64,000 bases of DNA, taken from contig CAVUIM010000004.1 in NCBI GenBank assembly GCA_963741665.1, positions 957,122-1,021,121 of the forward strand, given 5' to 3'. Position numbers and translations under genes: made by a program. Origin of the DNA: an uncultured Acidobacteriota bacterium. Lineage in GTDB: Bacteria; Acidobacteriota; Vicinamibacteria; Vicinamibacterales; UBA2999. This document shows, one piece after another, positions 29,634 through 29,897 of the stretch. The number at the start of each line of letters is the position of its first letter. Within the stretch, counting starts at the first letter, position 1. The notes beneath the pieces were generated by a model. It was not told the origin of the DNA. It saw only the letters and a list, made by a program, of their open reading frames with translations, and ran no database searches.

Positions 29634-29658
29634 CAGGGAACAGGGAACAGGGAGCAGG
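29634..29658. repeat. CAGGGAACAGGGAACAGGGAGCAGG: 3.5 inverted copies of the downstream heptamer array (can pair with it)
   Basis: Reverse complement of the CTGTTCC repeat unit. Located 33-57 nt upstream of the lysC start codon on the minus strand. Confidence 0.8.
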
Positions 29659-29714
29659 TAGAGCGCTTGTCTCGCTCCAACGGTGTCACGATGCCGTCAG
29701 CCTGTACCGTGCCC

Positions 29715-29756
29715 GCGTCGGCGTCGGCGTCGGCGTCGGCGTCGGCGTCGGCGTCA
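29715..29756. repeat. hexanucleotide tandem repeat (GCGTCG)x7
   Basis: Direct inspection. Produces the SASASASA shadow ORFs. Confidence 0.85.
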
Positions 29757-29794
29757 GCATCCGCGTCCGTGTCCCGTGCTCTTATCTGTGTCTC

Positions 29795-29897
29795 CCCTGT
29801 TCCCTGTTCCCTGTTCCCTGTTCCCTGTTCCCTGTTCCCTGTTCCCTGTTCCCTGTTCCCTGTTCCCTGTTCCCTGTTCCCTGTTCCCTGTTCCCTG
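29795..29897. repeat. heptanucleotide tandem repeat (CCCTGTT)x14.7, perfect
   Basis: 103 nt of uninterrupted CCCTGTT units in the asd-lysC intergenic region. On the minus-strand mRNA this reads (CAGGGAA)n. Confidence 0.95.

Follow-up and report, generated by a model that had tools for sequence, protein, structure and literature searches.

The 304-nucleotide (nt) gap between asd and lysC in an uncultured soil acidobacterium (contig CAVUIM010000004.1, analysed as a stretch of 64,000 nt that we call the window) contains a perfect heptamer array and, closer to lysC, a short array of the reverse-complement unit. This element is probably an intergenic G-tract heptameric simple sequence repeat (SSR), (GGGNNNN)n, whose arms form a convergent inverted pair, the G-rich one leading, and which makes up a structured spacer in the asd-lysC gap. 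Judged from its sequence, it is the same kind of repeat as the class described by Rehm et al. (2015; PMC4692102) but not the same unit family. Intergenic heptamer repeats are already known from Xanthomonas, cyanobacteria, Beggiatoaceae and Bacteroidetes; new is their occurrence in Acidobacteriota. Its role is most likely limited to keeping lysC apart from asd as a structured spacer.

Both genes are read from the minus strand, and the gap is described here in the sense of the mRNA (Table 1). An earlier note on this DNA had listed 14.7 perfect copies of CCCTGTT, seven of GCGTCG, a reverse-complement arm 33-57 nt before the AUG and a GCGAGC-rich stretch, all of which we recovered at the same coordinates using Tandem Repeats Finder (TRF) and direct reading. 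The 5' arm is 103 nt long and begins 8 nt past the asd stop on the coding strand; the lead together with the first array base gives TGACACGTCA, which resembles TAACGCGTCA in the closest relative, locus L081. Read in another register, the array is (GGGAACA)n with 15 GGG tracts at 4-nt spacing and 100% unit identity. A two-unit pattern matched 19 times in the window against 1.19 expected, and 0 of 100 shuffles reached 19. Apart from one A.C mismatch, the 3' arm can pair with the array in any register. The arms enclose a loop that holds a hexamer array, for which direct reading gives about 6.8 perfect copies plus degenerate ones and which has no counterpart in the orthologous gaps of relatives. 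AUCU separates the 3' arm from a 22-nt GCGAGC box, and GAAUAG stands between the box and the AUG. The GAGG core of a Shine-Dalgarno (SD)-like motif ends 5 nt before the lysC ATG, and the SD is predicted to be mostly unpaired.

In the minimum free energy (MFE) fold of the gap, the 3' arm and the array form a helix (z = -3.6 compared with shuffles). With many equivalent registers, the frequency of the MFE structure in the ensemble is close to 0 and the helix is missing from the centroid. Summed over registers, the arm nucleotides are paired to the array with a probability of 0.91-0.93 once at least three units are present (0.93 here). The sliding long-range helix proposed in the earlier note is thus borne out in silico. 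With G-quadruplexes (G4s) enabled, the energy model of ViennaRNA predicts the helix together with three G4s at an MFE of -126.5 kcal/mol, compared with -105.8 kcal/mol. The helix ends 32 nt upstream of the AUG, leaving the SD and the start codon outside. The predicted unpaired probability from SD to AUG is 0.81 at every copy number from 2 to 24, and blocking the forward array shifts this accessibility by at most 0.1 in the window and five relatives. These folds speak against the earlier suggestion that structure or copy number controls lysC translation.

Other structural candidates were rejected. In a three-part switch the 3' arm would alternatively mask the SD; a construct with 0 copies gave an SD accessibility of 0.21, yet array blocking changed nothing in six species, and the low value is regarded as an artefact of the construct. 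The centroid shows 8 bp of pairing between the asd stop region and the lysC start; this pairing is context-dependent and by eye absent from L081. The best duplex partner for the GCGAGC box lies in the lysC coding sequence near 29150-29180 (-34.5 kcal/mol), which is unremarkable at 70% GC. Sense and antisense MFE values compared over 37 gaps revealed no asymmetry (22/37, Wilcoxon p = 0.33). In the window, the antisense strand of the gap folds better than the sense strand (-116.4 versus -105.8 kcal/mol), in part because the antisense (GCGUCG)n from 29715-29767 on the + strand folds on itself into an 18-bp hairpin, which the sense (GACGCC)n cannot form.

The asd-lysC synteny is widespread among relatives. 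Their 105 orthologous gaps range from overlapping genes to 251 nt, and the gap in the window is the longest; 39 of the 105 junctions measure at most 10 nt (25 of them overlapping) and 47 at least 40 nt. Many of the longer gaps are made of 7-nt tandem units of differing sequence, and often a forward array comes first and its reverse complement second. In the subclade defined by at least 83% Asd identity with the window, both arms hold GGG at 7-nt phase while the 4-nt linkers vary. The forward array begins at most 10 nt from the asd stop in the window, L081, L001 and L003. Across the window's wider clade, the unit sequences at the junction turn over faster than the flanking genes. This orthologous series shows array turnover directly, with the G-tract phase kept, the linkers replaced and the arms roughly complementary, and since the turnover is visible at one junction, it is usable as a natural experiment on heptamer-repeat evolution. 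Very long degenerate heptamer arrays lie directly upstream of lysC in L030 (72-205) and L115 (3561-3695), with 18.6 and 19.6 units and 64-68% matches; they look like older, decayed versions of the fresh array in the window.

Counted per locus, a strong lag-7 autocorrelation signal was found in 12 of 104 junctions; the regions upstream of asd had it in 2 of 123 cases and those downstream of lysC in 0 of 111 (odds ratio ~15, p = 2e-5). Set against other intergenic regions, it marked 11 of 50 junctions compared with 10 of 409 (p 1e-6 or lower). However, nine junction positives form one single-linkage cluster at 80% Asd identity, and counted by cluster the enrichment is not significant (4/40 versus 2/48, p = 0.4). 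The claim of a junction hot spot, significant per locus and lost after clustering of related genomes, is therefore kept as a lead only. One or a few old acquisitions that persisted with unit turnover explain the junction data as well as recurrent selection does.

Heptamer arrays extend beyond this junction. The pooled set comprises 1.07 Mb from 161 genomes, that is 160 related loci and the window. Using TRF with at least 3 copies and matches of 80% or better, we counted 64 arrays of period 7, 46 of which lie outside the asd-lysC junction, as well as 3 of period 5, 20 of period 8 and 2 of period 10. Period 7 is the dominant non-triplet tandem repeat, periods 6 and 9 being mostly coding, and the heptamer arrays are mostly intergenic. 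Lag-autocorrelation gave lag 7 in 10 of 51 junctions of at least 36 nt and in 0 of 663 coding controls, with no single other lag; in one more junction, probably that of the window, lags 6, 7 and 12 were tied. An inverted two-unit partner within 300 nt accompanies 28 of the 64 heptamer arrays (44%) compared with 7 of 224 control windows. Of the 28 distinct pairs, 16 have the G-rich arm in first position and 3 the C-rich arm (p = 0.004), an order that is the same from either strand. Units with a G3 or C3 run are enriched (26/64 versus 23% expected, p = 0.003), yet they are a minority, and G4 potential is therefore not a general rule of the lineage. The window's array is the longest perfect heptamer array in the set, followed by a perfect one of 5.4 copies, and longer arrays are only degenerate; long perfect arrays are probably under-represented in short-read metagenome-assembled genomes. 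The earlier note had called perfect heptamer arrays rare. For this lineage the statement fails, as such repeats are its commonest non-triplet tandem type, but the length and perfection seen here are indeed unusual.

Octamer arrays behave like heptamer arrays in that 10 of 20 have an inverted partner compared with 0 of 65 controls, and none was seen between divergent genes. The heptamer unit families ATTGCGG, TTGGGAT/AAATCCC and AGGGCTN/GGCTCAG recur at unrelated loci of different genomes, and in L008 the unit TCCCTGA occurs in the junction and also at 8876-8922. This recurrence implies a choice of heptamer units that is not random and hints at spread or a convergent preference.

The window holds a second array of this type, CAGGGAT CGGGGAC CGGGGAC CAGGGAC CAGGGG (4.7 units, 8054-8086), directly after the stop of a gene for an FtsX/MacB-type permease (5391-8051). 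It lies inside the 5' end of an open reading frame (ORF) at 8041-9201 on the + strand, which encodes a CrtC/lipocalin-domain protein; the sole in-frame start is the ATG at 8041, and the N-terminus resembles a signal peptide. Because a change of one unit would shift the frame of this ORF, the array is a candidate for phase variation of the frameshift type.

Rehm et al. (2015) reported GGGAATC repeats in Xanthomonas and GGGGA(C/T)T repeats in Nostoc; in two xanthomonads 89-93% are intergenic, mostly between aligned ORFs (PMC4692102). Arrays contain 2-26 units, the longest perfect one 14, and each Xanthomonas genome has 70-75 convergent inverted pairs. The repeats are transcribed, form G4s in vitro and lie between the same genes in related species with differing length and sequence, in association with housekeeping genes; no regulatory role was found, and phase variation was judged unlikely (PMC4692102). 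According to a proposal cited there, the excess of heptamers stems from the DNA segment that the active site of the polymerase holds. The element in the window resembles this class in its 7-nt unit with a G3 tract, present at least twice (15 tracts here), and in its intergenic location between co-oriented ORFs, on the coding strand just past a stop (8 nt here, on average 28 nt from the 5' ORF there). It also has a convergent inverted partner, a frequent but optional trait of the class, giving a potential stem-loop that would compete with a G4 (here with a 25-nt arm, G-rich first). For genome-wide over-representation, a further mark of the class, what was observed is the dominance of period 7 in the set pooled from 161 genomes and, within the window, one further CAGGGAC-like array at 8054-8086. 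The element differs in the unit, which is GGGAACA and not GGGAATC, GGGANTN or GGGGA(C/T)T, with C where Xanthomonas conserves T, in the phylum and in the broad unit repertoire of its lineage.

Tandem heptanucleotides are also known from the cyanobacterium Calothrix PCC 7601, as cited in PMC4692102, and MacGregor (2015; PMC4679880) described sets of the heptamer TAACTGA in Beggiatoaceae, Cyanobacteria and Bacteroidetes; post-transcriptional roles have been proposed for such repeats, with S1, Csp and CsrA-like proteins among the candidate binders. Heptamer repeats affect recF and recO expression according to a Nostoc preprint. With the cyanobacterial heptanucleotides and the TAACTGA sets, the window's lineage shares abundant intergenic direct heptamers of a few to tens of units. 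In contrast, the TAACTGA sets lie at the start codon and replace the SD, whereas the array in the window is found at the end of the gap remote from the lysC start; one unit family is dominant among them, whereas units vary here; and Maribeggiatoa has one indirect repeat in 170 sets (PMC4679880), whereas 44% of the arrays are paired here. We found no mention of Acidobacteria or Acidobacteriota in the heptamer-repeat literature searched, including PMC4692102 and PMC4679880. If the classification is true, a fourth phylum, one that is very distant and little studied, joins those with intergenic heptamer repeats. Such a distribution would be better explained by a general cause, for instance slippage geometry of the polymerase or a structural role of paired arrays, than by one unit family spreading horizontally.

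Stable extragenic stem-loops inside operons are also formed by the repetitive extragenic palindromes (REPs) and bacterial interspersed mosaic elements (BIMEs) of enterobacteria, where they are possible decay barriers and possible causes of differential expression between upstream and downstream cistrons. The REP family is dispersed, conserved in sequence and served by a dedicated transposase. The element shares with them the stable extragenic stem-loop within an operon, as predicted here, but its sequence is locus-specific and built from tandem units, and dispersed copies are absent from the window and the 160 related loci.

As a structured spacer, the element would arise and change length by slipped-strand mispairing, as heptamer arrays would in general, and the 5' arm would have reached its 14.7 perfect copies by expanding recently. 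Once transcribed into the polycistronic mRNA, the 3.6-unit arm would pair with some register of the array in a helix of ~25 bp, and the ~11 surplus units would be single-stranded or form up to three G4s. The outcome would be a bulky intercistronic spacer that abolishes the asd-lysC translational coupling seen in many relatives and that may slow 3'-5' decay or transcription past asd. Initiation of lysC would use its own SD and the conserved GCGAGC box. Such an element would be no sequence-specific regulator, no sponge and no on/off switch. Several points weigh against this reading. Co-transcription, helix and G4s are predictions for this organism, and the gene calls used for context were crude. 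The per-locus enrichment at the junction hints at a locus-specific benefit. Moreover, the 44% pairing and the G-first bias exceed the order of pure slippage, so some selection or a templated mechanism must be at work.

The hairpin/G4 module may instead be a selected post-transcriptional operon element that acts as a stabiliser, attenuator or G4/hairpin competitor and sets the ratio of asd to lysC(-dapBAD), with repeat length as an evolvable tuning knob. We regard this as possible but rather unlikely. It is consistent with arrays of different units at the junction in many relatives, with their per-locus enrichment over matched flanks and other intergenic regions, with a G-tract phase that is kept while linkers drift, with the G-first order and with the short distance between asd stop and array in the four loci named above. 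Yet the enrichment is lost when related genomes are collapsed, 39 of the 105 relatives lack any spacer, the folds show no sense/antisense asymmetry and in the window favour the antisense strand, the predicted accessibility of the ribosome site is unaffected, and the analogous Xanthomonas repeats have no function found (PMC4692102). The earlier note had also raised phase-variable control, in which slippage in the array would reversibly switch lysC as a contingency locus. A perfect SSR of 103 nt is expected to be highly mutable, and the perfection of the array implies recent change; we expect it to be prone to slippage. But the array lies outside any reading frame and any detected promoter spacer. 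Because the 3.6-unit arm caps the helix length, 3-24 copies leave pairing at 0.91-0.93 and accessibility at 0.81. In addition, lysC is a core biosynthetic gene and not of the surface or contingency type, and Rehm et al. (PMC4692102) argue likewise for the Xanthomonas repeats, all of which makes a switch very improbable.

Like CsrB and RsmZ, a transcript of the gap would be rich in GGA motifs (AGGGA occurs 15 times on the mRNA strand), and the CsrA-like proteins proposed as TAACTGA binders (PMC4679880) would suit the sponge that the earlier note had envisaged to titrate CsrA/RsmA. Unlike those RNAs, the array is not an independent small RNA gene but lies inside an operon, and the gap has no promoter- or terminator-like site of its own. 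In the predicted folds the GGA is found in helix, G4 or open chain, never in a hairpin loop, and it is not conserved, as the orthologous units mostly lack GGA or have the opposite sense. The Rfam Csr/Rsm families (CsrB, CsrC and the Rsm RNAs) gave no match at the gap, and tblastn with E. coli and B. subtilis CsrA queries detected no CsrA in the 64-kb window or the related loci (best E = 0.96), which is weak evidence and uninformative for the whole genome. The chance that the array is a sponge is close to nil. An insertion of a small mobile element, similar to a miniature inverted-repeat transposable element or a REP, with heptamer repeats as terminal inverted repeats is likewise exceedingly unlikely. 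The inverted arms do flank a unique core of 135 nt, and a second GCGAGC box 5' of the 3' arm in L081, L082 and L084 resembles a duplication. However, the core (29659-29794) has no other copy in the window or the 160 related loci, the arms are very unequal (14.7 versus 3.6 units), and in relatives the arrays stand at unchanged positions while their units and loops differ.

A more far-reaching proposal, which we consider doubtful, is that the asd-lysC junction of one Vicinamibacterales lineage is a long-lived module. A fast-evolving G-tract hairpin would set lysC-dapBAD against asd through the balance of G4 and helix or through a protein with a heptamer footprint, for example a cold-shock protein, and the 22-nt box would be included; more broadly, a directional (G-first) mechanism would have produced paired heptamer arrays throughout the genomes of Acidobacteriota, a feature so far undescribed.

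The 22-nt GCGAGC box is the only conserved sequence in the asd-lysC gap. It is identical in the window, L081, L003, L082 and L004 and has 2 mismatches in L001, whereas four-fold degenerate sites of asd among the box-sharing genomes are only 58-71% identical, which is near saturation. By this sequence comparison the box is under constraint. It occurs only in front of lysC and nowhere else in the window or the related loci. In L081, L082 and L084 a second copy stands just 5' of the C-rich arm, and GGAGCGAGACAAGCGCTC in the 56-nt spacer of the window is, by eye, possibly a decayed second copy. A purine-rich initiation region and an operator are guesses at its role. The box may be an unrecognised lysC leader element, and as a candidate cis-element of lysC it ranks above the repeats.

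Table 1 Features of the asd-lysC region of the window and repeat or box sites in related loci (L numbers). Positions in the upper part are those of the window.
Feature	Position	Strand	Remarks
dapD-like gene	25752-26588	-	Pfam THDPS_N_2 + Hexapep
dapA	26602-27507	-	Pfam DHDPS
dapB	27509-28204	-	Pfam DapB_N/DapB_C
lysC (aspartokinase)	28201-29601	-	Pfam AA_kinase, ACT_9
SD-like GAGGAA	29605-29610	-	Read from sequence; spans box end
GCGAGC box GCGAGCGAGCGAAGCGAGCGAG, 22 nt	29608-29629	-	-28 to -7 of lysC ATG
3' arm CCUGCUCCCUGUUCCCUGUUCCCUG, 25 nt, 3.6 units	29634-29658	-	TRF (CAGGGAA) x3.6, + strand
Non-repeat spacer, 56 nt	29659-29714	-	Contains GGAGCGAGACAAGCGCTC
Hexamer array (GACGCC mRNA; GCGTCG + strand)	29715-29767	-	TRF x8.8, 91% matches
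Non-repeat spacer, 27 nt (GAGACACAGATAAGAGCACGGGACACG...)	29768-29794	-	Read from sequence
5' arm (CAGGGAA)14.7, perfect	29795-29897	-	TRF (CCCTGTT) x14.7, 100% matches, score 206
Lead TGACACGT, 8 nt	29898-29905	-	Between asd stop and heptamer array
asd (aspartate-semialdehyde dehydrogenase)	29906-30949	-	Pfam Semialdhyde_dh, Semialdhyde_dhC; GC at third codon positions (GC3) = 0.93
Sigma-70-like promoter match TTGACG-18-TATACT	31166-31195	-	Upstream of asd; consensus match only
L001 junction			CGGGGCT x5 ... CCCCGAG x5
L003 junction			GGGACCA x5 ... TCCCTGG x3
L081 junction			GGGTCCC ... CCCGAGN
L012 junction			CAGGGAA x4, without partner
L008 junction			TCCCTGA, opposite sense
L006 junction			TAGCGAA
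L007 junction			GGTGCCA
L010 junction			CCGGCAR (CCGGCAG)
L039 junction			CCCGYAG (CCCGTAG)
L023 junction			GGCTCAC
L051, L064, L079 junctions			Paired arrays
Box sites, L081	1262-1275, 1335-1348		
Box sites, L082	2169-2182, 2230-2243		
Box site, L003	3976-3989		
Box site, L004	3977-3990		
Period-8 array, L051	3856-3881		Example
Period-8 array, L105	240-278		Example
Period-8 array, L123	409-495		Example
Recurring unit family, L024	6038-6106		
Recurring unit family, L101 and L115			asd-lysC gaps
Recurring unit family, L031	8928-9030		
Recurring unit family, L055	281-309		
Recurring unit family, L032	9223-9250		
Recurring unit family, L040	6069-6132		
Recurring unit family, L150	29-55		
Recurring unit family, L155	1140-1190		

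Relatives of LysC and Asd place the window in the Vicinamibacterales, Acidobacteriota; the best ones from genome and metagenome scans share 90% (LysC) and 92% (Asd) amino-acid identity. Assembly breaks and strain-level differences in length are likely at the array. A conspecific sequence for a comparison of copy numbers was sought, and exact-protein look-ups of Asd and LysC were empty, the scans giving relatives of at most 90-92%.

The operon runs asd-lysC-dapB-dapA-dapD on the minus strand, with the asd stop codon TAG at 29908-29906 and the A of the lysC ATG at 29601. Because lysC and dapB overlap by 4 nt and dapB and dapA are separated by 1 nt, the asd-lysC spacer is the only uncoupled operon junction. 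A promoter scan of 29300-31300 returned the single sigma-70-like match upstream of asd and none inside the asd-lysC gap, which also has no site resembling an intrinsic terminator. A search of Rfam, run for the window with the gathering threshold and for the gap with E values up to 10, returned nothing relevant at the gap, only chance-level matches of microRNA type, and the lysine riboswitch (Rfam Lysine) was matched at neither setting. An ORF across the arrays (29667-29909, + strand) has no Pfam match and no coding GC3 signal and was rejected as a gene. The only matches at the gathering threshold in the window are a tRNA gene and a small signal recognition particle RNA, at 4346-4417 and 13164-13262 (minus strand). 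Elsewhere in the window, at 43295-43384, TRF found three tandem copies of a G-rich 30-nt unit with 71% matches.

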